Origin: an uncultured Phycisphaerales bacterium
Lineage (GTDB): Bacteria; Planctomycetota; Phycisphaerae; Tepidisphaerales; Tepidisphaeraceae
Reading direction: 5' to 3'
Assembly (NCBI GenBank): GCA_963755915.1
Contig: CAVWLP010000002.1
Coordinates: forward strand, 2,656,001 to 2,720,000
Length of the DNA stretch: 64,000 bases
This document shows, piece after piece, positions 1 through 19,390 of this stretch. Under the pieces are notes generated by a model. The model was not told the origin of the DNA, did not search any database, and was given only the letters and a program-made list of their open reading frames with translations. Position numbers and translations under genes: made by a program. Every line of letters begins with the position of its first letter. Positions within the stretch are counted from its first letter, which is position 1.

Positions 1-180
1 GTTCATAGTGTCGTTGGGAAGATGAGCTTTGAGCCACAGAAACTGGCGGACAATATTCACGCGATGATGAATCAGATTCATCGGCTCAAGCCGCAGACGT
101 CGAAGGGGGCGTATGTGAAGAAGATTGTTCTGAAAGGGTCGATGACGCCGGCGGTTTATCTGCAGGACGTGGCGCACTAG
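1..180 (+). CDS. rplA: 50S ribosomal protein L1, C-terminal part (partial)
   Basis: Frame 1 reads VHSVVGKMSFEPQKLADN...KPQTSKGAYVKKIVLKGSMTPAV*, a typical L1 C-terminus, directly upstream of L10. Confidence 0.93.
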   Translation, partial: VHSVVGKMSFEPQKLADNIHAMMNQIHRLKPQTSKGAYVKKIVLKGSMTPAVYLQDVAH

Positions 181-205
181 ACGCAGCGCTTTAGAGGATT
201 TTGTC

Positions 206-754: not shown

Positions 755-755
755 G

Positions 756-808
756 AAGCGCTCCTCTGCGGGACTTCGGCGAGCTCAGTCGAGCCGTCGC
801 GGCTAAAC
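756..808. repeat. REP-like element carrying a nested 24-bp palindromic insert (772-795)
   Basis: AAGCGCTCCTCTGCGG[GACTTCGGCGAGCTCAGTCGAGCC]GTCGCGGCTAAAC; an empty version AAGCGCTTCCCTTCGGGTCGCGGCTAAAC is at 19347-19375. Confidence 0.75.
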
Positions 809-942
809 AATATTGTTTGTGATCGCGTCTGACGGTGATTGATGTCCTTTATGGGTTAAATCTCCTCATTGTGAGGAGGGCATTGATGCGAGACGCAAAT
901 CGACACGTTTTTTGGCCACGTTACGGCCGGGAGTGAATTGTC

Positions 943-1341
943 ATGGCAGAAGTATCTGAAAAAGTGAAGACGCTTGCGGACCAGGTGGTTGGGCTGACGC
1001 TGAAGGAAGCGGTGGAGTTCAGCGCGTATGTCAAGGAAGCGTACGGCATCGAGCCGGCGGCGGGCGGGGTGGCAATGATGGCCGCGCCCGGCGGCGGCGG
1101 CGCGGCGGCTGCGGCGCCGGCGGAGGAGAAGACGACGTTTGACGTCATCCTCAAGGCCGCGGGCGACAAGAAGATCAATGTCATCAAGGTCGTCCGCACG
1201 GCGACGAATCTTGGGCTGAAGGAAGCCAAGGATCTGGTCGAGGGCGCGCCGAAGACGGTGAAGGAAGCGCTGCCCAAGGCGGATGCTGACAAGCTTAAGA
1301 AGGAGCTTGAGGAGCAGGGTGCGCAGGTCGAGCTGAAGTAA
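943..1341 (+). CDS. rplL: 50S ribosomal protein L7/L12
   Basis: Ala/Gly hinge, [30 protein letters not shown]. Confidence 0.98.
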
Positions 1342-1377
1342 TTTCGGATTTGAGATTTCAGATTTGAGATTTGCGCG

Positions 1378-1404
1378 AAGCCCCGGATTAATTTCCGGGG
1401 CTTT
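1378..1404. terminator. Probable bidirectional intrinsic terminator
   Basis: AAGCCCCGGA-TTAATT-TCCGGGGCTT hairpin between convergent rplL and ECF genes; the ECF stop codon lies in the loop. Confidence 0.7.
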
Positions 1405-2991
1405 GCTCGTTGTGGGGGCTGTCGCTGGTGGAGATCTTTGGATCGGTTTTCTGGCCGCGGTGGAGGGAGATGTTGCGGAATTCGATCCACTGGTTGAAGG
1501 GCCGCGATTCGAGCCGCCACTGGCGGATCAAGTGCGGCGCGAGAACGATGGAATATTGGCTCATCGTGCCCGCGCCGTTGGAGACCATGTTGCCGAATTC
1601 GGCGACGGTCTCGCGGCCGGAATAATCGATGGCGACCAGGCGAACATCCTCCCTGGTGATTTTCCCCATCATTCCGACAACGATATTGGTTTTCCCCCGA
1701 TCCTGGTAAACGGCGCTGAAGAGGAATTGACCGCCAGGCCCGCCCTCGGCGGTCTGCCCCGTGCCCTCGGCGGTGGCCAGGGTTTGCCACGGGCCGGCGG
1801 CGATGCGGGCGCGAATCGCGCCGCTGCCGTTTGTGTTGGGCAATTCCGTTGCGACGGTTTCGGAGCCGGGGAGATTGCTGCTGCCCGAATAGCTGACGCT
1901 GCCATGGTCGAGAAACCACTGGACGGTGGCGGGTTCGGAGGAGCCGTGGGTGACGGGGTTGACCTTGACGACGATTTCGCGGGCGATGTCGCCGGGGTTT
2001 ACGGAGAGTGCCTGGACGTTTGTGTGGAGATCAGAGTTAAGTGGATCGCCGTCGATTTGCCACCACAGGCTGCCGGAAGACGGATTTTCGTTGATGCCGA
2101 CAATCTCGACGGAGACGCCATTGGAAAGTTGACCAATGGCAGGGGATGAGGATTGGTCAACAGCCGCGGGGGGTGGGGGAGGAGGCGGCGGGAGAGTGGA
2201 ATCGGTTTGATCGGCGAGAAGCTTGAACCCGCCGATGCCGACGCCCGTTGCGGCGGTCAGCGCGACCATGAGAAGGAAGGCCGCTGCGACTTTTTGCCAG
2301 GTAAGCATGTGGAGAACTCCTTTTGCGATGGCCGAGGCGGCGGGCGAAGCGGTGCCGCTGACGGCGGAGAGGGTGGCGCTGCGCGCGAGCGCGGCGGGCG
2401 CCGTGGTTCGGGGAATCTGATCGAGAATGACGGCCAGCGAAACGGCCGGCGAAATGGCGCTCTTTCGCAGCAGAATTTTTCGCAGGCGGTGGATGGCGCG
2501 GGAGATTCGCTTCACGGCGGCCTGCTGGGAGATTTGCAGAAGCTCGGCGGTCTCGGTGTTGGATTTGTCCTGGAGATATCGGAGGGTGAGGGCGGAGCGG
2601 TCGGACTCGCTGAGCTGGGCGATGGCGCGGTCGAGATGGGGGGAAACGGTTTCGAGCTGGGCATTCATATCCGGCTCCGTCGAGGTGGGGGCCAGGGAGG
2701 CGGCAAGATGTTCATGGCGTTTTCGGCGGCCTTCGATCTTGGCGGCGTCGAGGCTGGCGAGATGGGTGGTTTTCATGATCCAGCCAGCGAGGGAATCGCG
2801 GTTTTGGAGCTTGTGGGCTTTTCGGGCGAGAATGATGAAGACGGCCTGGCAGACGTCCTCGGCCTGCTGGGGATTGTGAAGTTGACGGCAGGCGGCGGCG
2901 TAGACGGCGTCCATATGCGCCCGACGATCTCGGCGAAGGCCTCCTGCGAGCGGGTTTCGATGAATTTCTGGAGCAATTCGCGGTCGAGCAT
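1388..2991 (-). CDS. ECF sigma-70 factor with transmembrane helix and long C-terminal extension (frameshift near 2915)
   Basis: MLDRELLQKFIETRSQEAFAEIV + MDAVYAAACRQLHNPQQAEDVCQAVFIILARKA (region 2); LSESDRSALTLRYLQDKSNTETAELLQIS (region 4); hydrophobic VAAAFLLMVALTAATGVGIGG segment; Pro linker. Confidence 0.9.
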
Positions 2992-3059
2992 GGCTGTTCT
3001 CAATATACCCGGACGGCCAAGAGGGTAATTGGACAGCTAAAATTCCGACGGGAATGGAT

Positions 3060-3391
3060 TCAGCGGGTGATATAGATTGCGCCGGATTCGACGGTGAGTT
3101 CGACGCCGGCGGCCTTGGCGGCTTCCTGGAGGGCGGCGTCGAGCATGACGATCGGGATCGGGCCTGACGTCCAGCCGGCGCATGAGGCCTTCGCCTTTTT
3201 TGTCGCCGGCGGTGAGGGTGATCTTCAGGCCGCGGCGTTTGCATTTGACTGGCGTGCCGTCTTCGAGCTTGGTGTTCATCGGTTTGACATAGGCGTCGAC
3301 GAAATGGACGCCGATGCCGGATTTGTCTTCGGTTTTGCGGCGGGAGCTTTTCGCGGGCGGCGGGATTGAGGTCGCAGAGTTTGGTTTTCAT
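3060..3391 (-). CDS. Small hypothetical protein (~110 aa, frameshifted), last gene of the methyl-transfer operon
   Basis: ATG overlaps the stop of the homocysteine methyltransferase; stitched MKTKLCDLN...GIGVHFVDAYVKPMNTKLEDGTPVKCKRRGLKITLTAGDKKGEGLMRRLDV...AIYITR*. Confidence 0.6.
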
Positions 3392-4305
3392 ATTTTCACT
3401 TCCAGATATTGATCGATCGCTTTTCGGAACGAGGCGGATGTGGTCGGGGGTTGAGCCGCAGCAGGCGCCGATGATGTTGGCGCCGGCTTCGAGCAGGGGC
3501 ACGACGCCGGCCGACCATCTGCTCGGGCGATTCGTCGTAGAACGACTTTCATGTTGACCAGCTTGGGCTGGCCGGCGTTGGGCTGGACCATGACGGGGAG
3601 ATCGGTGGCTTTTTTGTATCGCTCGACGGCGGTTTCGCGCGCGGTTCATGTCCATGCCGGTGCCGCAGTTGAGGGCGACGATGTCGGCGCCGCGGTCCTG
3701 CATGAATTCGGCGGCGCGCTCGGGGTCGATGCCCATCATGGTGCGGAAGGTGGAGCCGTCGAGGGTCACGTCGTAGGCCATCGAGCCGATGATGCAGGGC
3801 GCGCCGGCTTCTTGGCGGCGTCGATGGCGAGGCGCAGTTCTTCCAAAGACGTTTGCGTTTCGATGATGATGGCGTCGGCACCGGCGTCGACCAGGGCTTT
3901 GGCTTGTTCGTTGAAGGCGGCGCGGACCTGGGCTTCGGTGAAATCGCCGTAAGGCTCCATCAGGCCGCCGAAGGGTCCGATGTCGCCGATGACATAGCCG
4001 GGGCGATTGCCGAACGCCTGGCGGGCGATTTCGACGGCGGCTTGGTTGATCTCGACGACTTTGCCCGCGTTGCCGTGGCGGTTGAGCATGATGCGCGGCT
4101 GCCGCCGAAGGTGTTGGTGAGAATGCAATCGGACCCGGCGTCGGCGTAGCGGCGCTGGATGGCGAGGACTTTTTCGGGATGGGTGAGGTTCCAGGCTTCG
4201 CCGCAGTTTCCCTGGACGAGGCCGGCGAACATGAGCTGCGTGCCCATGGCGCCGTCGCCGAGCAGCGGGCGGTCCGCAATTGCCTCGGAGGAGAGTTGGT
4301 TTCAT
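3388..4305 (-). CDS. Homocysteine S-methyltransferase domain protein (stand-alone MetH N-terminal module; frameshifted)
   Basis: GDGAMGTQL, TNTFG, GDIGPFG, DAIIIET, and Zn-binding ALNCG and GACCG motifs across frames. Confidence 0.9.
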
Positions 4306-4316
4306 GTTTGTGCTGC

Positions 4317-5599
4317 CTATTGCCGCGTGCTCGCGGCGGCGGATTTTTCCTGCTGCACCAGGGCGAAATGAATCGTTTCGAGAACCAGGCCCCATTTGTG
4401 TTTCCGGCTGGCGGGCTCGCAATAGCAGCCGGCGCCGGTGTTCGGGCGCTGCCAGGAGAGCACGTCGTTGAGGGGGTGGCCGAGGAGCGGTTTTTCGTGA
4501 TCGATCGCGACCATCAGGTGCTCGGCGTTGGCCATGTATTGGCACATAAACGTGTGGCCGTCATCGCCCGGGGCGGGCTCGCAATGGAGCTTCCGAATGG
4601 GATATCCCTCTTGCGCGGGCCGAGGAGGAGATGGTAGTGAAAGTAAGATCGCCCGGCCCATGTTGCTGCAGGTGGTGCCTTCGTAGCGGAAGAGAGCTTC
4701 GATGGTGCCATCGGCGTGGTGCGTCGAGCGTCAGGCGCTCGTCGGCCCAGCGGGAAAGGGCTTTGGCGTTCACGACGTACTTGGCGTTGTGATCGAGACC
4801 GACTGGGGCCGGGGGGACCTCGTCGGCGGCATTTCGGATTGTCAAGGCCCAACGTGTTGGAATATTCGGATACCCGCCGTACGGGACGCGGCGATACTGG
4901 CAGGGATTGAAGCGAGCAATTTTCGCAGGGGATCAGGTCGGTGAGACGGCCGGACGCGCTCGGTGTGATTGGTCAGTCCGAAGACGGCGAGCAGCGATTT
5001 CTTGGGCCGCAGCATTCCGGAATCGAGCACTTCGATGGCGCTGGGGGCTTTGTCGCCGTCGCGCTGCGATCAGATTCAGGAGGCGGGGCTGCTCGGAAAT
5101 ATCCCACTCGCGGATAGCCGGGGCTGTAGTGCGGGAGAACCGCCATTCCCGCGGCTTTCGGCCCAGGCGCAGAGCCGTGCGCCCGTCATGGTCATCAGAT
5201 GTTCGACAACGGCCGAGCCGAAGATTTCCAGGAAGAAATATTCGTCGGGCTTTTCATTCGGCCACAGCCTTTGTGCTTCGTACTTCAAGTTCCGGGCCGG
5301 CGCTGACGGCGACGAGAATGGCGCTGTGCGCCTGCGGCATCGAGCAGAGTTTTCTGGAGGCGTTTGCTGGTGAAGGAAACGCCGTCGATGGTGATCGAGC
5401 CGTTGGTGATGCGGAGTGCATTCGCATTGCGCGGGCGTAAACCCAGGGCTGGCCGTTGTTGGCATACCAGTGGCGCGCCCAGTCGGCGAGTTCGCGGGCG
5501 CGGCCTTCGAGGACGACATCGCCGGGGATAGCCCAGCAGCCGCTTATATTCAGCGGGCTGAACATTGATGTCCGGAAATGCGTCGAGCAATTCGATCAT
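4317..5599 (-). CDS. Methionine synthase B12 reactivation-domain-like protein with an extra Cys-containing C-terminal domain (frameshifted)
   Basis: Stitched AILVAVSAGPELE, HYSPGYP, MLRPKKSLLAVFGL, CENCSLQSCQYRR resemble stand-alone Met_synt_B12 proteins; then GTTCSNMG, FMCQY, GCYCEP. Confidence 0.65.
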
Positions 5600-7263
5600 T
5601 GCGTTCATGCCGACACCTGGGTTCGACGTCTCGACGGGTTTGAACTGGCATCCCTCGACGAAGAAATCGAAGAATCGGGGATGGGTTTCCAGCCGGCAGT
5701 GCTCCACATTTTTGACCAGCTGTTCCAGTTCGGCGCGTTTGGATTCGGAGAGCAGGGCGATGGCCGCCCCTTCGATGGCGGCGTTGCCGACCTGGACGAT
5801 TTTCGAGTCGGGCAGATTGGGAATCAGCCCGATGCGGCGGGCGGCTTCGACGTTGAAGTGCCGCCCGAAGCCACCGGCGAGATAGAAGACGTCGATATCG
5901 TCGAAATCGACGCCGTAATTGCTGAAAGACCGTTTGCAGTCCCGCGACGTTGGCGCCCTTGGCCTGAGCCAGTTCGTTGACGTCGCTTTCGAGGAAGTAG
6001 ATGTCGTGCGGCGTCGTCGAGGGTGATGCGCGATTCGCCGTCGTTCGAAGCGGCCCAGTTCGTTCATGCGGCCGGTGCGGAGCAGTTCGCTCAGGAGATC
6101 GATCAGGCCGGAGCCGCAGATGCCCTGCGGCGTGCCGCTCCGATGACGCCGAGATGGAAACGCGCCGTCGTCGTCGATGTTGATATCTTCGATCGCGCCG
6201 TCGAGTGCGGGCATGCCGCAGGAGATCGCGCCGCCTTCAAACGCCGGGCCGGCGGGGCAGGATGCGGCGAGGATGCGGTCGCTGGTTGCCGAGGATCAAG
6301 CTCGGTATTGGTGCCGATGTCCATGATGGCGACCAGGCGATCTTCGTTCGCGAGATCGACCGCCAGCATGCAGGCCGCGGCGTCGGCGCCGACGTGGCCG
6401 CTGATGATCGGGTGCGCCGTAAACGCGCGCTTTGGGATGGATCGGAAGCAGGCAGCGGCGGCCGGTGTCGGTCAGGCTGGTGGTGGTGCGTTTGCCCTCG
6501 GCCATTTCGATTTCGGTGATGGAGCGATAGGGATTCTGGCCGATGGAGTAGACGTTCTGGCGGAAGAAGAGATCGCGCATGGTGGAGTTGCCGACGACGA
6601 CCATTTCGTAAATGGTTTTGGGATCGACGGGGAATTCTTCGATGGCGTGGGTGAGATATCCGGCGAGCGTGCGCATCAGCAGCTTGGCCGCGTTGTTGCG
6701 TGTCGTAGAAGATGCGCGACATCACGTCCGAGCCGCCGAAACGCTGCGGATTTTCGAACGAGGCGTCGGCGACGAGATCGCCGGTTTCCAGGTTGATAGA
6801 GCCGAAGGACGACGGTCGTGGTGCCGAGGTCCATGGCGATGCCGTGAATCGGGCCGGTGGAGCGGTCGATTTCCTGACCGTCGATGAGGATGCGATCGCC
6901 GTCGCGGGTGACGGCCGGGATCGAGGACCATTTTGCAGGTCGCCGGCGGCAGGCCGAAGGCGCTGCGCTCGATGCGCATCTGCCCGCGGCGCATGGTGTG
7001 GCAGCGGATCTTCGCCGGCGTCGGAAGTCGACGTGTGTCTGGCAGGAGAGGCGGAAATTGCCCTTGAGATGTCTCTCCTGCGTCGGTGGGCGGCGAGAGA
7101 CAATCCATTCCCTGCGACGATCTCCACCAGGCATTCCTTGCACTTGCCCTGTTTCTGGCAGGAGGTGGGGACCTTGACGCCCAGCCTGCTCGGCGAAATC
7201 GAAGAGGGACGGCCCCGGCGCGGCCGGGGTCGATATTCCGTTGATGGTCAGCAACAAGGCCAT
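5596..7263 (-). CDS. RACo/ASKHA-family ATP-dependent corrinoid reductive activator with N-terminal 2Fe-2S domain (frameshifted)
   Basis: SCQKQGKCKEC..RLSCQ ferredoxin; AMDLGTTT, NPQRFGGSDVMSRI, GNSTM, MDIGTNTEL, AGPAFEGG, GICGSGLID, LAGGFG, VGNAAIEGA. Confidence 0.92.
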
Positions 7264-7277
7264 CGACGCACCCATTC

Positions 7278-7535
7278 TTACCATTCGTGTTTGGCCTCGA
7301 GCTCGGCCTTTACCGCAGCGGCAACATCCCGGGCGGAGCCGGCCGGTCTTCTTCGTCGCTCCATCGCCACTGGGCGAGATAGTCGTCGGCATTTTGCAGG
7401 CCGCGCTGGTGGGCCAACTGGTCGATCCGCTCCATGAAGCGCGGGGCAAGCTCGAGGCTGAACCTCGTCGCCGCCTTCCTCGGCGCTGATCTGGGAAGGA
7501 ATTTCCTGCCAGTAGAGGATTTTGAAGGTGGCCAT
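7278..7535 (-). CDS. 'Virulence factor' (Virulence_fact-like) small protein associated with corrinoid methyltransferase clusters
   Basis: MATFKILYWQEIPSQI...RFMERIDQLA...DDYLAQWR, matching the family's YWxxIP.Q and Y..W pattern; frameshifted. Confidence 0.7.
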   Translation of the reverse strand: MATFKILYWQEIPSQISAEEGGDEVQPRACPALHGADRPVGPPARPAKCRRLSRPVAMERRRRPAGSARDVAAAVKAELEAKHEW

Positions 7536-7541
7536 CGGTGT

Positions 7542-8183
7542 TCAATTCCTTTTCGCCAGCCGCAGGAAGAGATCGACGGCTGAGGAGGCGTTTTGTCCGT
7601 AGCCATCCGCGCCGATTTCATCGGCGAACATCTGGCTGATGGGCGCGCCGCCAACGGCCATTTTGATCTGTCCGCGGCCGGCGGCTTTGAAGCCGTCGAT
7701 GACCGTTTTCATGTAGGTCATGGTGGTGGTGAGCAGCGCGCTCATGCCGATGATCGTCGGATTGCACTTGTCGGCGGCGGCCATGAATTTTTCGACGCTC
7801 TGATCGACGCCGATGTCGTGGACTTCAAAGCCCGCGCCCTCGGCCATCATGCAGACGAGATTTTTGCCGATGTCGTGCAGGTCGCCGCGGACGGTGCCCA
7901 TGAGCAGGACGCCGGTGCGGTCGTCGCCTCTGCCTTGGCGCTGAGCAGCGGCTTGAGGACGGCCATGCCGGCTTTCATGGCGCGGGCGGCGATCAGCACC
8001 TCCGGCACATAGAGAATATTGTGCTTGAAATCTTCGCCGACGACGCTCATGCCGGCGATCAGGCCGTCGGTGAGAACTTCCTGGACCGCGCCGGCCTTCG
8101 GCCAGGGCGTCCTTGGTCATCTGCTCGACTTCCTTGGCTTTGCCTTCGTAGAGGCATTGATTCATCAGGGCGTAGTCGATCAT
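7542..8183 (-). CDS. Corrinoid (B12-binding) protein, MttC/MtbC-like (frameshifted)
   Basis: Cap domain GLIAGMSVVGEDF..LYVPEVLIAARAMKAG; GTVRGDLHDIGKNLV (DxHxxG), SALLTTT, VGGAP, IGADGY. Confidence 0.95.
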   Translation of the reverse strand: MIDYALMNQCLYEGKAKEVEQMTKDALAEGRRGPGSSHRRPDRRHERRRRRFQAQYSLCAGGADRRPRHESRHGRPQAAAQRQGRGDDRTGVLLMGTVRGDLHDIGKNLVCMMAEGAGFEVHDIGVDQSVEKFMAAADKCNPTIIGMSALLTTTMTYMKTVIDGFKAAGRGQIKMAVGGAPISQMFADEIGADGYGQNASSAVDLFLRLAKRN

Positions 8184-9250
8184 CGGGCGCTCCCGGCCAG
8201 TTCGGCCGTTTGGCGTTGAATTCCTCGAGGGCTTCGAGCATGGCAAGGATGTTTTGCCTCGGCATTCCGGGGCTGGTGCCGCCGCCGACGGAGAGGATGA
8301 TTCCCTGCCCGCCGGAGCCTTCGAGAACGTCGAGCGTGGCTTCCTTCACTTCCTCGGGCGTTCCGCGAACGGCAATTTCCAGCGGATTTACGTTGCCCAT
8401 CAGGCACATGCGGTCGCCGACGCGCTGCTTCACTTCGCGGATATCTTTCTGCTTGCCCCAGTTCAGCACGTTGAAGCCGCAATCGGGAAGGTGATCGAGA
8501 CAGGCGTCGACTTCGGCGTCGTTGTGATAGATCTTCACCCAATCCTTCGGGAAGGCGTCGCAGATGCGCTTGAGATAGGGATGGGCGAATTCCATGTAGT
8601 GCTCTTCGTTGATGAAGCCGACGATGTCGTCGAGGATGAAAATGCCTTCGACGGTGTCGCCCATGACTTTGTGCTGAGCCTTGAGCCAGTCGATGACGAC
8701 GCGGGTGCAGAGGTCGATGAGCTTGTGGCAGCCTTCGGGGTTTTCGACGAGCTCGACCATGAGGTTGGTGGTGCTGCGGACGAAGCCAGCGGTGCAGAGC
8801 GGGCCGCGCGAGGTGACCAGGGGCAGGATATAGCCGTGGTCGAGAATGCGCTGGCGGATCCATTTTGATGCGGTGCAGGGTCAGGGCCGCGAAGGCGTCG
8901 GCGTCTACTTCGTATTCGGGGAACTTGTCGATGTCTTCCAGGCGGTAGAGGGTGTGGTATTCGCTGGGGGTGTTGTCCTGCCAGAACTTGATCTTGGCGC
9001 CGAGGACCGAGGGCTCGGCCGCCATGCCGTATTCCATCCACCAGGAGGGGACGAAGATGATGTCGGGAAACTCCCGCATGATCTTCAGGTTCGATTGAAA
9101 CCAGAGCTCCGGATCGAGGTAGTAGTCCATGTGCTTGATGCCGAGATAGCCGGGAATCCACGGGCTATCGATGATCATGGCCATGGGGATTTTATCCAGC
9201 TTCTCAAGACGTGCGGCGCGCTTGAAGGTTTCCCACTGCTGGGGACGCAT
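8180..9250 (-). CDS. Uroporphyrinogen-decarboxylase-family methyltransferase (substrate:corrinoid MT1 candidate; frameshifted)
   Basis: GPLCTAGFVR, ILDDIVGF..EFAHPY, CLMGNVNPL..RGTPEEV, GIILSVGGG; stop overlaps the corrinoid protein start. Confidence 0.85.
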   Translation of the reverse strand: MRPQQWETFKRAARLEKLDKIPMAMIIDSPWIPGYLGIKHMDYYLDPELWFQSNLKIMREFPDIIFVPSWWMEYGMAAEPSVLGAKIKFWQDNTPSEYHTLYRLEDIDKFPEYEVDADAFAALTLHRIKMDPPAHSRPRLYPAPGHLARPALHRWLRPQHHQPHGRARRKPRRLPQAHRPLHPRRHRLAQGSAQSHGRHRRRHFHPRRHRRLHQRRALHGIRPSLSQAHLRRLPEGLGEDLSQRRRSRRLSRSPSRLRLQRAELGQAERYPRSEAARRRPHVPDGQRKSAGNCRSRNARGSEGSHARRSRRLRRAGNHPLRRRRHQPRNAEAKHPCHARSPRGIQRQTAELAGSAR

Positions 9251-9294
9251 AGGGGGGTTCCTGGCCTTTCGGAAAACTCGATTTTCGTGATTAT

Positions 9295-9308
9295 AGTAAG
9301 CGTTTACT
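9295..9308. promoter_or_regulatory. LacI-family-like operator palindrome in the divergent promoter
   Basis: AGTAAGCGTTTACT, central CG, near-perfect dyad; TATAAT at 9320-9325; 12/14 match to 16008-16021. Confidence 0.6.
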
Positions 9309-9369
9309 GAATCGCCTAGTATAATCTCCTTTGCCGCCGGAGTCGAATCGGGCGGAATCTGGACGAATA

Positions 9370-10944
9370 GTGTACACACTTCGCGAAAAATTGACCCAGC
9401 CTAACCGTTTCCTGCTCGGAATCGAGCTGGTTACGACGCGGGGGACGATGGAGGATCGGCAGGCGGTTCAGACGCGAGAGTTTGCCGGGGACTTGGTTCA
9501 TTGCGACAGCGTGGATTGGGTATCTATAACGGATAACGCGGGGGGAAATCCGCAGCTAAGTCCGCTGGCGCTGGGGAAGCCGATTCTTTATGCCGGCAAG
9601 GAGGTGCTCATCCACCTCTCATGCAAGGATTTCAATCGCAATGGTTTGGAGAGCGCGGCGTGGGAGATGGCCAGCGAGGGGTTTCATAATATTCTGGCGC
9701 TCAGCGGCGACTATCCGGCCGGTGGGTATCACGGGCGGGGAAAGCCGGTGTTTGATATCGATTCGATCGGGCTGCTGACGATGCTGGGGGAAATGAACCG
9801 CGGGCTGGCGCGGCCGCATGTGAAGGACGGCGCGGCGCGGGCGACGGATTTTTTTGCGGGGGCTGTTGCCACGAATTTTAAGCGGCATGAGAACGAGGTG
9901 ATGCCGCAACTGCTGAAGCTGGAGAAGAAGATTGAATGCGGGGCGAAATTTATTATCGCACAGATTGGATACGACGCGCGCAAGAGTCATGAGATGCTCT
10001 GCTATATGCGGCGCGTGGGAGTCGGAGATGTTCCGCTGATTGGCAACGTGTTTCTGCTCTCGGCGGCGGTGGCGCGGTTTTTCCGAAGGCAGGCGATTCC
10101 CGGGGTGATTATTTCTGATGCGCTGCTGGAGGAATGTGAGCGCCGGGCGAGGGATGCGGCATTTTTCCGGGAACTGGCGGCGAAACAGCTTGCGATTTTC
10201 CGCGGGTTGGAGTTTGCCGGGGGATATCTTGGGGGCGTACACAATATTGAAGATGTGGGGGCGATCGTGGAGATGGAGCGATCGTTTGCCGGGGGGGACT
10301 GGAAGCAGTTTGCGCGGGAGATTCAGTATCCGTTGCCGGGAGAGTTTTATTTTTTTGAGCGGGATCCTGTGACGGGCCTCGCGGATGAGACGTCGGTGCG
10401 GGAACGGCCGGCGCCTCGGAAGGTCTCCGTTGGTTATCGATTTAGCAAAGGGGTGCACCACGCAGTGTTTACGCCGGGGACGATGCTGAATCGGCTGGGG
10501 CGGGCGATTTATGCGTCTTCGAAAGATACGCGGCGGGGGCCGCTGGCGCTGCGAATTCTTGAGCATGCGGCCAAATCGGCGATGTTTGGGTGCCGGGACT
10601 GCGGGGATTGCTCGCTGCCGGACATCGCGTTTCTCTGTCCGGAATCACAGTGCGCCAAGAATCAGCGGAATGGGCCTTGCGGGGGGACGCGGGATGGGAA
10701 ATGCGAGGTGCATGACTTCGAGTGCATCTGGAGCCGGGCGTATGACCGGCTGAAATCTGAGGGGCGGGAGCGGGAATTGCTCGCCCATGCGCCGGTGATT
10801 CAGGATGAAACGCTGCGCGGGACATCGAGCTGGGCGAACGCGCTGCTGGGGCGGGATCACACGGCTTGCGAGGCGAATCGCGCTGCGACGATTTCAAAAG
10901 AAAGGAAGAAGACGAGCGATGTTCAGAGTTCCGCGACTGTTTAA
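9370..10944 (+). CDS. metF: Methylenetetrahydrofolate reductase fused to a C-terminal MetV-like Cys-rich domain
   Basis: SITDNAGG, HLSCKDFNR, LALSGDYP, KKIECGAKFIIAQ; tail CRDCGDC..CPESQCAKNQRNGPCGG..CEV..CIW; GTG start inferred. Confidence 0.88.
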   Translation: MYTLREKLTQPNRFLLGIELVTTRGTMEDRQAVQTREFAGDLVHCDSVDWVSITDNAGGNPQLSPLALGKPILYAGKEVLIHLSCKDFNRNGLESAAWEMASEGFHNILALSGDYPAGGYHGRGKPVFDIDSIGLLTMLGEMNRGLARPHVKDGAARATDFFAGAVATNFKRHENEVMPQLLKLEKKIECGAKFIIAQIGYDARKSHEMLCYMRRVGVGDVPLIGNVFLLSAAVARFFRRQAIPGVIISDALLEECERRARDAAFFRELAAKQLAIFRGLEFAGGYLGGVHNIEDVGAIVEMERSFAGGDWKQFAREIQYPLPGEFYFFERDPVTGLADETSVRERPAPRKVSVGYRFSKGVHHAVFTPGTMLNRLGRAIYASSKDTRRGPLALRILEHAAKSAMFGCRDCGDCSLPDIAFLCPESQCAKNQRNGPCGGTRDGKCEVHDFECIWSRAYDRLKSEGRERELLAHAPVIQDETLRGTSSWANALLGRDHTACEANRAATISKERKKTSDVQSSATV

Positions 10945-11849
10945 GTTGATCGGGGAGTTGATGAACAATTCCTTCGCGGGCGGCGCGGGCGTGGAAGGCG
11001 CGCGATCTGGCGGGGTTTCAGAAGCTGGCAATGATTCAGACGGACCTGGGCGCCGATTACCTGACGCTGAATATCGACGGGACGCAGTCGATGCGGGTGA
11101 GGCCCAAAGAAATGTTCGAGTTTATTCCGGAACTCATTCCGGCGATTCAGGAAGTGACGCGGGTTCCACTGTCTTTTGACAACCCATCGGCGGAATTTCA
11201 TCGGCGCTGCCTGGAGGTTTATGATCCGAAAAAGGGGGGGCGGCCGATCATCAATTCGGTGGCGGCGTCGCGGCGCGAACTGGACGAGATGCTGGAGCTG
11301 GCGAAGCATTTCGACACGATGGTGATCGGGATGGCATCCGAAAAGTTCGTCGACGGCGGGTCGGCGCAGTGTCTTTCGGCGGATGATGTTTATTGCGCGG
11401 CGCATCGCCTGGTGGAATTGCTGCGGGAGAGGTCGGGGCGGCAGTGCTCGGAGATCATCATCGATACCGGGCTGGCGCCAGTGGGGGCGGATACGTATGG
11501 GCTGGTGAACATGGGGCTCGATGCGATGCGGGCGATTCGGAGGAGTCCGGAGCTGGCGGGGGTGCATTTGTCGGTGGGGCTGACGAATGTTTCGTTCGGC
11601 ATGCCCAAGGAAATCCGCACCTCGGTGGAGAACGCGTATCTGACGCTGGCGGTGGAGGCGGGGCTGGATTTTGTGCTGGGGAATCCGGAGAAGCATTTGC
11701 GGTTGCTGGACGAGGAGGACCGTTACGTTCAGTTGGTGGCCGAGGCGCTGGAGTGCGGCCGGCCGGGAGGCGGGGAGACGCAGGAGGAGGCAGGCTTCCG
11801 GCAGGCGGCGAAAATCATCGGGCTGTTCAGTGAACACGAAATCATCTGA
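10919..11849 (+). CDS. Pterin-binding methyltetrahydrofolate:corrinoid methyltransferase (AcsE/MT2-like; frameshift near 10980)
   Basis: LIGELMN, GADYLTLN, PLSFDN, IINS, IIIDTG, VGLTNVSFGMP, AGLD..LGNP. Confidence 0.85.
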
Positions 11850-13119
11850 AAACTTCGAGGAACTGGCGCAGGATTTCGCGCACGCGAGCGGTGTGGCTGC
11901 GCGTGGGCCGGCTGATCGACGGGCGAAGCGATCGGCCGCTGCTAAATGCGGATATTTTGTTCGACGCGGGGGGGATTCAACTCGTTGCCGCTGGAGGGGA
12001 CGTTCCAACGCGAGGGGTGCCTGATGCAGTGTTGCCCGATTACACGGCGCTTCCGTGTTTGATTGAGGCGCACGCCCACATGTTTCTGGAAGGCGCGCCG
12101 ATTGACGCTAAGCGGCGCGAGGCGCATTTGAGGGAAATGCCCGAGGCGATGCTGGCAAAAGCGCGGCGGCGCTGGGCGAAGATTTTGAAATGCGGAATCG
12201 GGGCGATCCGGGATGCGGGGGACAGGCACGGGGTGGGATTGAAGCTGGCGGCGGAAGCGCGGGAGAGTCGTGGAAAGGTGGCGTCGACTCCGCTGATCGA
12301 CAGTCCGGGAGCGGCGATTCATCACCGCGGGAGATATGGGGGGTTCATGGCGGAGGCGATCGAGGAATATGCGGGGGCGGATGAGTGTGTGGCGGCGCGG
12401 GTGGCCGCGGGGGCGGATCGGATCAAGCTGCTGGTGAGCGGGATCATCAATTTTCAGGAGGGGAAGGTAACGACGGTGCCGCAGATGTTGCCGGATGAAG
12501 TTGCGGCATTCACGCGCGCGGCCAGGAGCCACGGGCGGCAGACGTTTGCGCATGCTTCGGGCGTGGAGGGGATTGCCAACTCGATCGAAGGGGGCGTGAC
12601 GACGGTGGAGCACGGTTTTTTCATCACACGCGAGCAGCTTGGGCAGATGCGCGACGCCGGGATCGGGTGGGTGCCGACGTTTGCGCCGGTGCAACTCCAG
12701 ATCGACCGGGCGGATGAGCTGGGATGGGATGAGAAGGTGGTGTCGAACCTTAAGCGTATCATCGATTGGCACCGGGAGATGTTGCGATATGCGCATTCGA
12801 TTGGCGTGAAAATTATTGCGGGGAGCGATGCGGGTTCATGCGGGGTTCCGCATGGGCTGGGATTCCTGCAGGAGCTTTGCCAGATGGAAGGGGCGGGGAT
12901 TCCGGCGATGGCGGTGATTCAAGCCGCGACGGGCGTGAGCGCCGCGGCGCTGAATTTCGCGGAGCCGATCGGGCGGATTGCGCCGGGGTTCCGGCGCGGT
13001 TCATACTTACCCGGCATGATCCGCTTCCCGGCGTTGCTAATCTGATGAAGGAGAAGACGGTGATATTCGATGGCGCCGCCGTCCAGTGTGAGACGGAGAT
13101 TGATACCGACGGTCTTTAG
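11830..13119 (+). CDS. Metal-dependent amidohydrolase (frameshifted at both ends)
   Basis: IEAHAH, GADRIKL, FAHASG, VEHG, AGSDAG metal-site motifs; overlaps the upstream methyltransferase. Confidence 0.85.
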
Positions 13120-15994
13120 CCGCCGAGGCGATAAAAGCTTTCCGGCGGTCCGAGGAAGCTGGGCTTAACGCCGCCCAGGTCGACGACGATTTTTTCCAGG
13201 ACGATTGCAGGATCGACCATCCAGAATTTCAGGGTGTGGTAGCCGGGCGAATCGATGGTCATAGGGATTTTCACTTCGCGAATGCTGTTGATGACGGATA
13301 TCTGCCAATCGCGCTGAGTGTTGTCGGCCAGGGAATCGACGACCTGGGGCGTCTGATCGTCGATTGAAATTGCGAACCGCAATCCGCGGCCGGGAACAAA
13401 GGCCTGCGTTGGTGCGATCATTACGGAGGCTTCGGCGTTGCCGGAGTGAAAGAGATACATTTTATACTCGAGACAAGGATTTCCGGTTGGCGGATCGGTG
13501 CTGGAGGCGATGGTCATCGCCGAAAGCGTGCGGCCGTAACCGGCGATTCGATACCACTGCGAGGATTTGGAATCGATCTTTTTTGTAAAGTGCTCGGCTT
13601 CCATCGAGACGCAGCGGTCGGATTCGACGAAACCGTCGAGGTTCTGCGGCGTGATTTCGCGAGGATTTACGGCTGTGCATGTCACGGGAACGGATTTTCC
13701 AGCGCCGCTAATGGTGATCGTGGCGGTGGATGTGCCCCGCGGCGCTTTGTTCCAGTCTACCTGCACATTCAGGCGCAGGTCTTCATTTACAGTTCCGCTT
13801 TTGTTGCTCAGGAGCACCCAGCTTTTGCTTGCTTCGGCTTTGAACTGAAATGATTTGCGGCCGCGATTGAAAACGTCGATATAGCGGCTCTGGCGATTGA
13901 AGGAGTCGATATCAGGCAAAATCGCCGGCGCGGCATCGCCGGGCCAGGCGGAGGGTGAACCTTCGACGGCGACTCCGAGCGCGCCGCGCGAGGCACGTCG
14001 ATTCTCGTCACCTTGGGCATGCGATTTTCCGGCGGCTGCTGCCATCTCGTATAGCCGATGTGCGTCTGGTCCATCATGTGGTCCCATCGGCCGTTGCCCA
14101 GCGTTTGGTTGTAATAGTTCGAAAGAGCCTGGTCTTTTTGAAAGAGTGTTTCCGCGTCGTCGGCGAGGTGATTCGCGCTGGCCCGGCCCTGCGCGGCAAA
14201 GAGATGATTTTTGGCGACGGTGATAAAGAGATTCGCCACGTTCTCGTACGCTTCGGCGGGATCGATCACGAATTCGAAGAACGGGTCCTTCGCGTCATCG
14301 GGCAATTCTGCTTGAAGCTTCCCGGCTTCGGTGACGATCGCCTGGTAATCGGCAAGCACCTGTTCGGCTTCGCCGTAGTTCACGATGCTGAAGGTGTCCG
14401 GCGAAAGTAGCTCGGGCTTGATCCGGCCATTGAGTTTTTCGTATCGCCAGATCAGATCGGCGATCTGATCGGCGTGCTCTGGCCCAAAATTCTGTGCGGC
14501 CCACTGGCGGGTAAATTCGATCAGGTTTTCGCCGTTCCAACGGGTGGGGTTCCAGGCCAGGCTCAGAAAAAATTCGGCAGGGAACTCTACGTGCTTCAAA
14601 TGCCCGACGTTCACGATCCAGATCCGGTCGGCGCCCATCCGCGAGGCGAGGTTCATCTGCTCCCAGATTTTCGGGATGGGATTGGTGTCGATCCACTTAT
14701 AATTCCGCGGATCGCCGACGTAATCGAGGTGGTAGTAAACCCCGGCCCCGCCGGCGCGATTGCGCTCGGCTGGCGTGGGGAGCCGCCGGATGTTGCCCCA
14801 GTTGTCGTCGGACCAAAGCAGCGTAATATCATCGGGCACGCGCATCCCCGCTTCGTAGTATCCCTGCACTTCTTTATACAAGCACCAGAGCTGCGGAACT
14901 TTGGTCACATCTGGATTGATCCGCCGGGCGATGATCTGCCGCTGGTCGGCGACAATCTTTTCCAGCATCGCGATATTCGCCGCCATGGTGCCGGTGGACG
15001 CCATCGGGGTGTCGATCTTGCCGCGCATTCCAACGGTGATGATGCTCTCGAAATGGTCGTTGCGGACGAGCCCCTCGTCCCAGAATTGGCGCAACTGCGC
15101 GGGGTTGGTCGCGTAATTCCACCTCTGCGCCGAATATCCTGCCCGGCTCCATTCCTTGTCGGCGCGCATCATCGGCTCGACGTGGCTCGTCCCCATCACG
15201 ATCCCATATTCGTCCGCCAGCTTCGGGTTCAGCGGGTCGTCCTGGTTGAAGCAGGAGTTCCACATGGCGGGCCAGAGGTAATTGGCTCTCAGGCGAAGCA
15301 GCAGCTCGAAAATTTTTTCGTAGAACTGGTGATTGTACCCGCCGAATTTTTCGTTCACCCAGCCGGTGAGGTCCGGGTCTTCGTCATTGAGGAAGATCCC
15401 GCGATATTTCACGGCCGGCGGGCCCTGGATGAATACACCGGGCCTGGCGTAGACCGCGTCGCGATGCCGGACGGGAATATCTCCCCACCAATACGAGGGC
15501 GAGACGCCCATCTGCTGGGAGAGATCGTAGATGCCGAAGATGGTTCCGCGCTTATCGCTGCCGGCGATGACCAGCGCGTCGGCGACGCCTGGCAGGGGGT
15601 TCTGGACGACCGCGGTAAGGGTTGATTCCCATTTGCCCGCGATCGAACTCGCGTCGATTTTTCCATCGTGGACGAGCCGATCGACGATGGGGCTGTTGCC
15701 GAGCGTGCCGATGATGATCGCGTGAGCGGCGAGTTTCGCGGGGTCGGTTACGATCGGCGCGGTGATGCCGGTGACGCGGGCGATGTCGGCCTGTAGGTCG
15801 CCGGCGGCGCGGGTCACGCCAGGGAAATCGTGCGGATCGACGTAGAGATTCGCCGCCGATTGGCTTTCGACGATCGCGAAGCTGCCGGGCTCGGAAGTGG
15901 TTTGAACGTACGAATTCTGCCCGAGCGCGGGGCAATGGAGACCGAGGGTTGCCAGGAGAAGACCCGCGACAAAAGAGGCGAACCTCCGTGGCAT
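13116..15994 (-). CDS. Secreted glycoside hydrolase family 115 alpha-(4-O-methyl)glucuronidase (frameshift near 13990)
   Basis: Signal peptide; GSDKRGTIFGIY, VKYRGIFLNDE, RANYLWPAMW, MGTSHVEPM, LWSDDNWG, GVYYHLDYVG, WIVNVG, DQTHIGY; C-terminal SFLGPPES. Confidence 0.93.
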
Positions 15995-16007
15995 AACCCT
16001 CTGGACA

Positions 16008-16021
16008 AGTAAACGATTTCT
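16008..16021. promoter_or_regulatory. Second LacI-like operator candidate just upstream of GH115
   Basis: AGTAAACGATTTCT, about 14 bp before the GH115 ATG; 12/14 identical to the reverse complement of 9295-9308. Confidence 0.5.
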
Positions 16022-16276
16022 AGGCCAAAAATATATGAACGCCGCAGGGAAGCCTACGCGATTTTCAGCCTCGCGGCAATCGGGGAAGAGGGGGGAAGAA
16101 ACGGCGGCGTGAATCGCGATTCTGGCGGCGAAGTCGCGACAGCGGTTTTAGGCGGAAAGCGGCCGGCGGCGGGAAAGCCGGTGACATCCGCGGTTTTAAG
16201 ATGAGCGGAACAGGAGGCGATCATCACCGGCCCGACGGCCGTTGCGATCGCCCGTAACGCGCTGCACTTCATCGCG

Positions 16277-16942
16277 CTAAACTTCATGCGCTGCCTCCAG
16301 AGGTTGCTTCTGAGTATCCCCAAGAAATCCCGGCAGATCGGCCGCCTGCGCGGTGCCGGCGAGGCCGACGCATTCGTTGACGGTCTTCTTTAGATCTTCT
16401 TGAATCGCCTCGCTGTCAATGCGCGGGCGGAAGAAATTGGCCCATGCAAATTCGGCAAAAGGGGACGATGTTTTTGCGTAACCGCCGGCGGCGCGTACAA
16501 AGCCGGCAAGACTGCGATAGGGATCGTCTTTCAGTTGCCTGAGGGATTTGGGCAGGGTGCGCAAGGGCTTGCGCTTGCCGCGGGCGTTGAAAGGATGGAC
16601 AAAACTGTCGGCCTTCATGCGCTTCCAGAAGTCGCGGGGGGATAAGTGCGAAAAATCGGCCTCGATTTGCATCGGGGCGGTTTTGAAATCTTCTTTCAAG
16701 AGGGCCAGGGCGAGGTGGTGGTGATCGATGACGTAGGCCTGGTCTTTGGGGCCGAGGACGACGCGGATGGGGGTTTCGAGGATGAATTCGACCATTTCGG
16801 CGGGCTGTTTCTCGAGGGCGCGCAGGCGTTTTCGTTTTTGTTTGACTTCGAGCATGCCGACGGTGAGCTGCGTGGGCCGCAGGCGGGAGATGGCGATGCT
16901 TTCCATCCGGGGTTGGGCGCTCGCAGGTTGGGGGATGGACAT
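16277..16942 (-). CDS. ParB-like nuclease family protein (ParBc_2-type)
   Basis: LRPTQLTVG, VVLGP..YVIDHHHL, DDPYRSLAG, FAEFAWA; start may be at 17032. Confidence 0.8.
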   Translation of the reverse strand: MSIPQPASAQPRMESIAISRLRPTQLTVGMLEVKQKRKRLRALEKQPAEMVEFILETPIRVVLGPKDQAYVIDHHHLALALLKEDFKTAPMQIEADFSHLSPRDFWKRMKADSFVHPFNARGKRKPLRTLPKSLRQLKDDPYRSLAGFVRAAGGYAKTSSPFAEFAWANFFRPRIDSEAIQEDLKKTVNECVGLAGTAQAADLPGFLGDTQKQPLEAAHEV

Positions 16943-16988
16943 TCTGGCCTCCTCGGTGGGGGATTGTAGCGGATGTTGCGGGGTAGAA

Positions 16989-17669
16989 TCATCCAAAAGT
17001 TTTTCGCTGCTGATGCTGCTCTCGATAGACATGGTGGTTATGGGAAATCTGGCGGGTGAAATCAGCGAGGCGCTGGGCGTCGGCGTGGCCGGTCTGATGA
17101 TGCCAGGTTTCGCGTTTGAAGGGGATCACCTGGACCAGGGGGGTTCCGCGTTTTAGTGCCTGTTTTGATGTGCGCGGCATCAGGCAGACGGCGGGGAAAT
17201 TGACGTGGGCATAAAACGTGTCGGTGTCGACCACGCCGGCGAGAATTCGGAATGCGTTTGGCTCGTGATTCAGCGGGGGCAGGTAGAGGGTGGAATAGCC
17301 GGGCGGGGTGACGATGATCCAGGGGTTGATGAACTTGATGACCGGGGAATCGGCCCAGGGAGAGCCGGCGAGTTGGGCGGGGTGATGGAGCTCGATGGTG
17401 GCGTCGCCGTTGGGCGAGTCGAAGGTGAGGGCGCCGGATTCGTTGAGATCGAAATTGACGTCGCCGGGGAGGGGGATGATGTAGCCGGTGGTCATGGCGT
17501 CGAGGAAGGGGGGGCATTGCTTCACCGTGTGCATCGTCCCCGCCACGTCGGGCAACTCGAGGTCGCCGGCCAGATCGCGATACCAGTGTGGCAATCCTCT
17601 GCTGGCCGGAAATGGTGCGGGAATCCAATCCTTTTCAGCCGCGTGGAATTCGATCACTTTGTCACTCAT
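16989..17669 (-). CDS. DUF6065-like protein
   Basis: KQCPPFLDAMTTGY, NPWIIVTPPGYS..LPPLN, GVVDTD, RGTPLVQVIPFKRE; ATG overlaps the upstream stop. Confidence 0.7.
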   Translation of the reverse strand: MSDKVIEFHAAEKDWIPAPFPASRGLPHWYRDLAGDLELPDVAGTMHTVKQCPPFLDAMTTGYIIPLPGDVNFDLNESGALTFDSPNGDATIELHHPAQLAGSPWADSPVIKFINPWIIVTPPGYSTLYLPPLNHEPNAFRILAGVVDTDTFYAHVNFPAVCLMPRTSKQALKRGTPLVQVIPFKRETWHHQTGHADAQRLADFTRQISHNHHVYREQHQQRKTFG

Positions 17670-19296: not shown

Positions 19297-19346
19297 TGAT
19301 GGGGGAATTCTAAGTGAGGGTTGGTGATTCGGAAACGGAGGGGGAA

Positions 19347-19375: not shown

Positions 19376-19390
19376 GGGCGGAAACAGGGT

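Follow-up and report, generated by a model that had tools for sequence, protein, structure and literature searches.

A candidate corrinoid methyl-transfer system for 4-O-methyl-D-glucuronate in a Planctomycetota genome and its relatives

The window analysed here, a 64,000-nt stretch of DNA from an uncultured Phycisphaerales bacterium (G000:C2:2656001-2720000), carries at positions 3060-16021 a gene cluster predicted to encode a corrinoid methyl-transfer system, whose methyl donor is most likely 4-O-methyl-D-glucuronate from glucuronoxylan (we put the probability at roughly 0.6). In the xylans of hardwood, and in many others, the acidic side groups are mainly 4-O-methyl-glucuronic acid. An earlier note on this DNA, centred on the same positions, had read the cluster as a corrinoid system that demethylates methylglucuronate; this reading gains support from the enrichment of glucuronidase genes around its homologs and from an operator-like site that the cluster shares with GH115 and xylanase genes. 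The argument is comparative, being built on family assignments and gene context, from which we infer every chemical step. The assembly that holds the window (G000) comprises 6.6 Mb in three contigs, with an estimated completeness of 81%.

Components and conservation of the methyl-transfer core

Genes were called from open reading frame (ORF) lists and Pfam scans of the window, and the intact orthologs of a congener genome, G003, which served as the reference for alignments and models, were scanned with Pfam and NCBIfam. The UroD-superfamily methyltransferase that heads the minus-strand operon (MT1) matched PF01208 at 4e-34 in the window piece and at 1e-42 in the intact G003 ortholog. It is equally distant from the structures of UroD, MtaA, and CdmB (E about 1e-10; 2.5e-10 for UroD vs 4.5e-10 for MtaA). 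Its best NCBIfam match, the MtaA/CmuA subfamily model TIGR01463, reached 110 bits against a cut-off of 235, and the MtaA equivalog scored 81 against a cut-off of 400. Aligned with the MtaA chain 4ay7, MT1 has H-N-D in place of H-I-C and G-G-G in place of G-C-G (C to G); we take the zinc ligands of MtaA to be the His-x-Cys ... Cys at the H-I-C and C columns of 4ay7. Judged by sequence, the H-N-D and G residues would suit an enzyme on the donor side better than a thiol methylase. Identity of MT1 with MtaA or MtbA was ruled out by the scores below the cut-offs and by the unmatched His-x-Cys ... Cys.

The partners of MT1 could be assigned to families, with two exceptions. The corrinoid protein combines PF02310 and PF02607 in G003, i.e., a stand-alone cap and B12-binding module. 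Its NCBIfam matches are MtgC, MtbC, and the cobalamin regions of MetH, and its translation shows D-x-H-x-x-G, which we take to be the defining corrinoid-binding motif. The activating enzyme, of the RACo type, matched PF14574 and PF17651 in window pieces, and PF00111 in addition in G003. The G003 ortholog of the homocysteine S-methyltransferase (HcyMT) matched the homocysteine module PF02574 at 1.9e-59; its NCBIfam matches are the N-terminal half of YitJ, BHMT, and MetH, the metH model aligning over residues 14-296, and the Cys motifs in its translation are presumably zinc ligands. The pterin-binding methyltransferase (pterin MT) on the plus strand matched the NCBIfam methyltetrahydrofolate:corrinoid methyltransferase domain. 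The amidohydrolase found its best named match in an Xaa-Pro dipeptidase model, far below the cut-off.

The first exception, a 429-aa protein, had no match in Pfam, NCBIfam, or the PDB sequences (the best PDB hit, E 0.09, is at chance level). An AF2 model of its G003 ortholog, built from a 28-sequence alignment, reached a pLDDT of 84, and the N-terminal half retrieved 1j6r, the TM0269 activation domain, as top Foldseek match (E 1e-8, TM 0.84 on the target), followed by the reactivation domains of Thermus, E. coli, and human MetH. The modelled N-terminal half thus has the fold of the AdoMet-binding activation domain of MetH, an assignment made by fold only. The C-terminal half of the protein, a Cys-rich domain of some 165 aa, contains eight invariant cysteines; no fold or family match was found for it, and the ESM Atlas look-up returned nothing usable. 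The second exception is a small ORF of about 108 aa with no Pfam or NCBIfam match; its AF2 model (pLDDT 75) gave no Foldseek match at E <= 0.001, and the ESM Atlas none usable.

A database search at E <= 1e-20 retrieved 2351 relatives of MT1; the 120 best all share at least 80% identity with it and span several phyla. We surveyed 185,579 species genomes, one per species, confirmed 502 relatives, and analysed the best 80 loci (three from congeners) with flanks of up to 10 kb, some of them shortened by contig ends. In these 80 loci MT1 is 85-92% identical; 65 belong to Acidobacteriota, 14 to Planctomycetota, and one is labelled Limnocylindrales. The survey revealed a core of genes that share one strand and keep a fixed order, namely MT1, corrinoid protein, RACo, 429-aa protein, HcyMT, and the small ORF. 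As counted by tblastn with the G003 proteins (coverage >50%; >=30% for the small ORF), the corrinoid gene lies near MT1 in 77/80 loci, RACo in 73/80, the 429-aa gene in 66/80, and HcyMT in 62/80, and the small ORF follows HcyMT in 61/80, with a mean column identity of 79% across 24 loci; many of the loci are truncated at contig ends. The corrinoid gene mostly begins about 1.1 kb after the MT1 start, and the stop codon of MT1 and the start of the corrinoid gene overlap in G003 (ORF ends 13402 and 13399). The MetF-MetV fusion (MetFV), the pterin MT, and the amidohydrolase form a three-gene unit that occurs within 10 kb of MT1 in the same 8/80 loci.

Since the homocysteine, cap plus B12-binding, and activation-fold modules stand as separate genes, the core is MetH taken apart with RACo added, the UroD-type enzyme replacing or supplementing the folate module. 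Full-length MetH was found above its curated cut-off in all five module genomes tested, and MetE (PF01717) in two of them. The module is therefore an additional system with a different donor.

Between Planctomycetota and Acidobacteriota, MT1 is 85-92% identical and the corrinoid protein mostly 81-92%, less so only in partial or broken matches. Such identities seem, in our judgement, far above what vertical inheritance would lead one to expect, and either horizontal transfer of the module among soil bacteria or extreme constraint may account for them.

Glucuronidase neighbours and a shared operator-like site

GH115, GH67, and CE15 enzymes act to free methylated uronic acid. At least one of these families lies within the flanks of 26 of the 80 loci (GH67 in 20, GH115 in 9, and CE15 in 11), where chance would place 0.8-2.6, an estimate, not a shuffle, that assumes 3-10 family copies per 6-Mb genome. 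The loci concerned are 16/65 in Acidobacteriota, 9/14 in Planctomycetota, and the single one labelled Limnocylindrales. The homologs of the 8180-9250 protein are thus strongly enriched for such neighbours, which is what the earlier note had proposed to look for. At least six arrangements join MT1 to these families. GH115 lies directly upstream of MT1 and co-oriented with it in L034, L055, L061, L068, L087, and L091; GH67, together with a major facilitator superfamily (MFS) gene, stands between MT1 and the corrinoid gene in L027, L029, L042, L049, and L063; and a one-strand row of ManD-like gene, MT1, corrinoid gene, RACo, 429-aa gene, HcyMT, small ORF, short-chain dehydrogenase (SDR), and GH67 recurs in L048, L058, L079, and L088. 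In three congeners, CE15 lies within the cluster itself.

We clustered all ORFs of the 80 loci and annotated 20 recurrent clusters. They include GH67 of two types, GH115, CE15, a ManD-like member of the enolase superfamily, SDR, PfkB kinase, an MFS transporter, and an IlvD/Edd-family dehydratase; the ManD-like enolase, SDR, kinase, and transporter are uronate-pathway types. Aromatic-catabolism and feruloyl-esterase families were not among the 20. In five carriers with genomes of 5.3-7.3 Mb, GH67 is single-copy throughout, and in four of the five the glucuronidase adjoining MT1 is the only genomic copy of its family. We then examined co-occurrence in 201 genomes sampled evenly from the class Terriglobia. 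GH67 was present in 9/9 genomes with an MT1 ortholog vs 38/192 without one (Fisher p = 1e-6, not corrected for kinship), and it lay within 7 kb of the ortholog in 5/9.

A paralogue of MT1, 49-57% identical to it, occurs in 13 genomes of the Terriglobia sample, eight of which have GH67. Seven paralogue loci were fetched, and no corrinoid genes were found near the paralogue in any of them. Its neighbours are GH67 in L100; CE15, GH67, and a ManD-like gene in L101; CE15, SDR, MFS, and a ManD-like gene in L105; and MFS only in L103, and the other three loci show no GH67, CE15, ManD-like, SDR, or MFS gene. Because the paralogue adjoins GH67 and CE15 without corrinoid genes, it is the UroD gene, the expected determinant of specificity, that tracks the glucuronidases. 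In the five paralogue genomes searched, a stand-alone corrinoid protein sits at a separate locus (5/5), and the 429-aa protein was not found. Of the four such corrinoid loci that were fetched, three have RACo and HcyMT beside the corrinoid gene, two have a pterin MT, one has MetFV, and two have extra UroD paralogues. Corrinoid protein, RACo, HcyMT, and pterin MT come together in Acidobacteriota "hub" loci (L107 at G108:C7:485500-505499, L109, and L110), with MetFV in L109 and five distant UroD-family paralogues in a row in L107, which looks as if many methyl donors fed one carrier.

Within the genus, MT1 orthologs were found in five of 12 other genomes, at 89-96% identity over the matched part. 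The whole cluster is syntenic in the congeners G003, G004, G005, and G007, at 66-79% nucleotide identity. All four carry a GH67 alpha-glucuronidase gene between GH115 and the amidohydrolase gene (L014:6149-8362, L015:12689-14809, L016:6464-8656, and L017:11952-14179), and G004, G005, and G007, though neither G000 nor G003, carry a CE15 glucuronoyl esterase gene (PF22244) between the 429-aa gene and HcyMT. A tblastn search at E 1e-15 found no GH67 anywhere in the G000 assembly, which elsewhere holds another GH115 and two CE15 genes. The interlock of the cluster with GH115, on which the earlier note had laid weight, is hence peculiar to G000, and given the local loss of GH67 it is a leftover.

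The cluster and GH115 also share an operator-like palindrome. AGTAAGCGTTTACT at 9295-9308 and AGTAAACGATTTCT at 16008-16021 are the only matches to the 14-nt pattern in the 64 kb, with 0.01 expected, so that the similar site noted earlier in both promoter regions is indeed there. The inner palindrome GTAAGCGTTTAC (9296-9307) lies inside a longer inverted repeat (9289-9326), and a close variant of it stands just upstream of GH115, at 16009-16020. Each 20-kb locus of four congeners contains exactly two copies of GTAAnCGnTTAC, one in the divergent promoter and the other, a perfect site, at the GH115 start. The G000 genome contains 10 perfect palindrome sites, the same number as the reversed-pattern control (10), so only clustering and conserved placement count. 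Five of the 10 are packed into 13 kb of contig C1, where they stand upstream of genes that include GH52 and GH44. This distribution suggests one xylan regulon that would include the corrinoid genes. A search against Rfam found no riboswitch or RNA family in window 1-20000 at E <= 0.01, and one tRNA only in six related loci.

The C1 sites belong to a xylan-utilisation locus in its own right (L099, G000:C1:36000-55999, on a 93-kb contig), which has five copies of GTAAnCGnTTAC in 13 kb and encodes GH52, GH44, GH10, a BNR-repeat protein, a sugar-binding protein, PEP-CTERM proteins, and a LacI-type regulator.

Reading frames and layout of the locus

The genes of the window are interrupted reading frames, a feature that the earlier note overlooked: translations switch between good protein and arginine/proline-rich off-frame text. 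We mapped the breaks with a frameshift-aware dynamic programme that aligned the G003 proteins to the window. A total of 46 frame changes (35 one-base insertions, four two-base insertions, and seven one-base deletions) were needed, and nine of the 10 genes are broken. In the minus operon, the small ORF has two breaks, HcyMT six, the 429-aa gene 15, RACo 16, the corrinoid gene two, and MT1 one (near 8860); in the remainder, MetFV is intact, the pterin MT has one (near 10976), the amidohydrolase two, and GH115 one (near 13977). The in-frame pieces are 68-96% identical to G003, which carries every cluster gene intact. After frame correction, identity to G003 is 86% for HcyMT, 81% for RACo, 92% for the corrinoid protein, and 96% for MT1, and GH115 is 71% identical to its 986-aa G003 ortholog. 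A GC3-phase scan of the whole window for frame breaks was too noisy.

The breaks are most likely assembly errors rather than gene decay, because the essential rpoC of G000 is fragmented too (six pieces in different frames, G000:C2:4870723-4874979), similar breaks occur in congener clusters, soil contigs differ by indels at the same places, and G003 is intact. MetH of G000 is likewise in two pieces (G000:C3:656969-660432). Congener assemblies of few contigs (5-9) have a low completeness of 59-83%, and two of them, G001 and G007, show similar breaks in the cluster. Soil short-read contigs of relatives that are 90-99% alike differ from the window by single bases at inferred breaks, e.g., at 4647, 4914, 4954, 5109, 5922, 6012, 6046, and 8859; at the last of these, near the MT1 break, the soil contigs are without one base. 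Of 12 such indel places, about 10 are no more than 5 nt, and one is no more than 12 nt, away from an inferred break; at the twelfth, the soil contigs have a 2-base indel at 6140 and the inferred break is at 6137.

The alternative is that the module is decaying in G000, i.e., that the breaks are real, followed the loss of GH67, and have made pseudogenes of these copies whatever the function elsewhere. Two observations speak for it: 39 of the breaks fall in 4.2 kb (3066-7263) vs seven in the other 8.5 kb, a roughly tenfold difference in density, and G000 has no GH67 anywhere, yet four congeners hold one at this spot. The broken rpoC and MetH of the same assembly and the breaks of the same kind in G001 and G007 argue against it. 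Bacterial gene decay is biased toward deletions; here 35 of the 46 events are one-base insertions, there are no large deletions, and the in-frame pieces stay similar to G003. We consider decay improbable, and it concerns the state of the G000 copy, not the function of the system. Many frame errors across G000 would fit a completeness of 81% with only three contigs. ORF-based readings of this assembly need frameshift-aware tools.

The features of the locus are collected in Table 1. ORF lists and Pfam scans bear out the gene list given earlier for 3060-16021, to which the sixth gene of the minus-strand operon, the small ORF, has to be added. The amidohydrolase and GH115 genes converge tail to tail, and the ORF ends agree with the claim that their stops overlap, by 4 nt. 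Both the catalytic and the C-terminal domain of GH115 were matched once its two frames were joined, and by eye alone its N-terminus reads as a signal peptide.

Table 1. Predicted features of the corrinoid and GH115 locus (positions in the window)
Feature	Positions	Strand	Basis
Small conserved ORF, about 108 aa, sixth core gene	3066-3391	-	tblastn, consensus, frame map
Homocysteine S-methyltransferase (HcyMT), proposed methyl acceptor enzyme	3394-4286 (about)	-	PF02574
429-aa protein, N-half MetH activation (AdoMet-binding) fold, C-half Cys-rich	4320-5599	-	AF2/Foldseek
RACo-type ATP-dependent reductive activator (2Fe-2S, middle, and ASKHA domains)	5609-7263	-	PF14574, PF17651
Corrinoid protein, B12-binding cap and Rossmann domain	7545-8183	-	PF02310
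MT1, UroD-superfamily methyltransferase, proposed substrate:corrinoid enzyme	8180-9250	-	PF01208
Divergent promoter region with LacI-type palindrome GTAAGCGTTTAC at 9296-9307	9251-9369		pattern search
MetF-MetV fusion, methylenetetrahydrofolate reductase with MetV-type C-terminal domain	9370-10944	+	PF02219, PF12225
Pterin-binding methyltransferase, methylcorrinoid:tetrahydrofolate type	10934-11849	+	PF00809
Amidohydrolase-family protein	11704-13119	+	PF01979
GH115 alpha-glucuronidase, predicted	13116-15994	-	PF15979 3e-151, PF17829 2e-56, two frames
Second operator-like site AGTAAACGATTTCT, just upstream of GH115	16008-16021		pattern search

Just downstream of the cluster lies a frame for an ECF-type sigma factor (Sigma70_r2 and r4; 1388-3000, minus strand), which by eye continues into an anti-sigma-like region with a proline run; it may be two genes fused by a frame error. 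A ParB-like nuclease gene (PF08857; 16280-17032, minus strand) adjoins GH115, and further along are a DDE transposase gene (53309-55579, minus strand) and a gene for a GH28 pectin-type hydrolase (56762-58120, plus strand). Local GC skew is strong, at +0.2 to +0.36 in many 2-kb bins of window 1-64000, and amounts to +0.20 and -0.20 over two whole 20-kb congener loci (L016 and L017); its sign changes patchily along contig C2.

Proposed pathway, rival explanations, and comparison with known systems

In the pathway that we propose, GH115 here, and GH67 and CE15 in relatives, would release 4-O-methyl-glucuronate from glucuronoxylan, and a cytoplasmic MT1 would move the O-methyl group to the corrinoid protein's Co(I), so that glucuronate could enter uronate catabolism. 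HcyMT, to judge by its family and its place in the core, would then carry the methyl group from methyl-Co(III) to homocysteine, yielding methionine. In the genus and a few other lineages, the pterin MT could load tetrahydrofolate (THF) instead, and MetFV would oxidise methyl-THF to methylene-THF, as their families suggest. RACo, by ATP-dependent reduction, and the activation-fold protein, probably by AdoMet-dependent re-methylation, would rescue Co(II).

This outline modifies the earlier one in two respects. The cluster had been taken for a four-component O-demethylase that passes the methyl group to THF. A THF branch is indeed present here, but the conserved acceptor is homocysteine: because HcyMT occurs in 62/80 loci and the pterin MT and MetFV in 8/80, the system resembles a classical four-component O-demethylase less than it does a split MetH that has been given a new donor enzyme. 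Demethylation had also been described as oxygen-free. The chemistry would need no oxygen, but nothing ties the system to anoxic life; many carriers bear the names of Acidobacteriota genera that we take to be largely aerobic. We see about an even chance that, in soil Acidobacteriota and Planctomycetota, the ether of methylglucuronate serves as a direct methyl donor for methionine, through MetH parts joined to a UroD-type enzyme, in a module spread by recent horizontal transfer.

Several points weigh against methylglucuronate as the donor, or against the evidence for it. None of GH67, GH115, and CE15 appears within the flanks of 54/80 loci, some with shortened flanks; GH67 was unmatched in five of the 13 paralogue genomes (GH115 was not searched there); and the p-values are overstated because related genomes are not independent samples. 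The missing GH67 and the uneven breaks of G000 count here as well. No activating metal site was identified in MT1. To our knowledge, the characterised corrinoid O-demethylases act on aryl methyl ethers, methanol, methylamines, and methyl thioethers, and an aliphatic sugar ether has a worse leaving group. By a rough estimate, a catabolic flux with methionine as its sole methyl sink would yield more of it than biosynthesis requires. A search of sequencing runs listed no RNA run containing the stretch, and the best DNA runs share at most 0.15 of the sampled words with the window.

One rival account has another methyl donor. A corrinoid demethylase might serve a compound freed together with glucuronoxylan or lignin-carbohydrate complexes, such as ferulate, lignin fragments released via CE15, or methanol, in which case the glucuronidase neighbours would merely reflect co-regulation in plant cell-wall degradation. 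As far as we know, aryl methyl ethers are the substrates of those UroD-family MT I enzymes that have been characterised, CE15 acts at the lignin-xylan ester, and the 54 loci with neither glucuronidase nor esterase nearby would be accounted for. Peatland Acidobacteriota are reported to express methyltransferase genes assigned to methanol and "methoxylated compounds", in a study whose available text never mentions xylan (PMC10805028). What makes this account unlikely is that the enriched families are exactly the three specific for the (methyl)glucuronyl side chain, together with uronate-pathway genes, and that aromatic-catabolism and feruloyl-esterase families are missing from the annotated neighbour clusters. 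Furthermore, MT1 is far from every solved UroD-family methyltransferase (E about 1e-10), and methanol systems use MtaB-type, not UroD-type, enzymes.

Two further accounts would change the role of the core or of MT1 itself. The core might have a general role, as an alternative B12-dependent methionine synthase or in methyl salvage, and use a common cellular donor, its proximity to xylan genes being incidental or a matter of methionine supply. Its parts do match MetH domain for domain except for the donor module, and the 54 loci without a CAZyme neighbour would be expected. We nevertheless hold this to be rather improbable, as full-length MetH is present in all five module genomes tested, no SAM or cobalamin riboswitch was found in window 1-20000 or the six other loci, adjacency to single-copy GH67 and GH115 genes in several arrangements is unexpected for a housekeeping gene, and the paralogue is found in uronate loci that lack the other module genes. 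A housekeeping methionine synthase was rejected as a reading, since MetH occurs in 5/5 carriers. The UroD-family protein might, on the other hand, not be a methyltransferase at all and act on the uronic acid in some other way, e.g., as a cofactor-free decarboxylase like UroD. UroD proper scores like MtaA against MT1, and the paralogue has no corrinoid genes nearby; this would leave unexplained, however, the corrinoid gene near MT1 in 77/80 loci and RACo in 73/80, the stop/start overlap in G003, the corrinoid protein that the paralogue genomes keep elsewhere (5/5), with RACo, and a best NCBIfam match in the MtaA/CmuA methyltransferase subfamily. We regard it as very improbable.

If methylglucuronate is the donor, an enzyme family would be named for the missing first step of its catabolism, and MT1 would be the first example of a corrinoid methyltransferase with an aliphatic sugar ether as substrate, extending this chemistry to carbohydrate ethers. 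The decay of plant polymers by soil and peat bacteria would be tied to their one-carbon and methionine metabolism and to the supply of B12, soil hemicellulose breakdown would depend on vitamin B12, and biomass conversion would gain a clean demethylating enzyme. The "methoxy-type" methyltransferase genes of peat Acidobacteriota metagenomes would need rereading. Full-text literature searches found no demethylase for methylglucuronate, corrinoid or other, in line with the earlier remark that no characterised corrinoid one was known, and the 4-O-methyl group is not mentioned in the accessible part of a 2019 review of hexuronate catabolism. What is new here is the predicted substrate class, the clade of the donor enzyme, and the MetH-like architecture; corrinoid methyl transfer itself is known.

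The four-component O-demethylases of acetogens and Desulfitobacterium (Odm, Vdm, and Mtv) and the archaeal MtoABCD consist of MT I, corrinoid protein, MT II, and an activating enzyme. The cluster resembles them in its UroD-type donor enzyme, stand-alone corrinoid protein, and RACo-type activator; a pterin MT that would load THF lies in the window as well. The cluster differs in that its donor would be an aliphatic sugar methyl ether rather than an aryl methyl ether, that the conserved acceptor is homocysteine, with a pterin MT near MT1 in only 8/80 loci, that a MetH-activation-fold protein and a small ORF are added, and that the carriers are soil Acidobacteriota and Planctomycetota, not strict anaerobes. 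MT1 is also remote from its solved relatives.

Sugar demethylation has a precedent in the marine cytochrome P450 O-demethylases that act on the 6-O-methyl-D-galactose of porphyran (PMC6292453). According to the accessible part of that paper, there too a methyl ether blocks sugar catabolism and the gene lies among the glycoside hydrolases of the polymer (PMC6292453). The P450 enzymes use O2 and yield formaldehyde, whereas the system described here would transfer the methyl group intact and without O2, as their oxygen-independent counterpart. MtaA/MtbA and the type 1 mlp clusters described by Kountz and Balskus share with it the UroD superfamily, a corrinoid protein, and a RACo/Ram-type activator (PMC10418091). 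The mlp clusters, in the available portion of that text, have two or three Mlp paralogues, occur mostly in Firmicutes and other obligate anaerobes, are linked to methyl-sulfur and methyl-selenium compounds, and are described with no mention of homocysteine methyltransferase or CAZyme neighbours (PMC10418091). As far as that portion goes, architecture and hosts differ, and type 1 mlp clusters were rejected as the same system.

With MetH, the locus shares the homocysteine module, the B12 cap and binding module, the activation fold, and, here, the pterin module; it differs in that each module has its own gene, the operon begins with a UroD-type enzyme, RACo is present, and a canonical MetH is present as well. 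A joined pterin module, with methyl-tetrahydrofolate as donor, was not found: the module is absent from 72/80 neighbourhoods. MtgBCD of Ruegeria pomeroyi resembles the system in that, as the available part of the report describes it, one corrinoid carrier serves both demethylation and methionine synthesis; the donor enzyme is of the MttB family (MtgB) there and of the UroD family here, and the link is to glycine betaine genes there and to CAZymes here (PMC12478193). Judged from that part of the report, the nearest conceptual relative of the system is the modular MetH/MtgBCD of Ruegeria.

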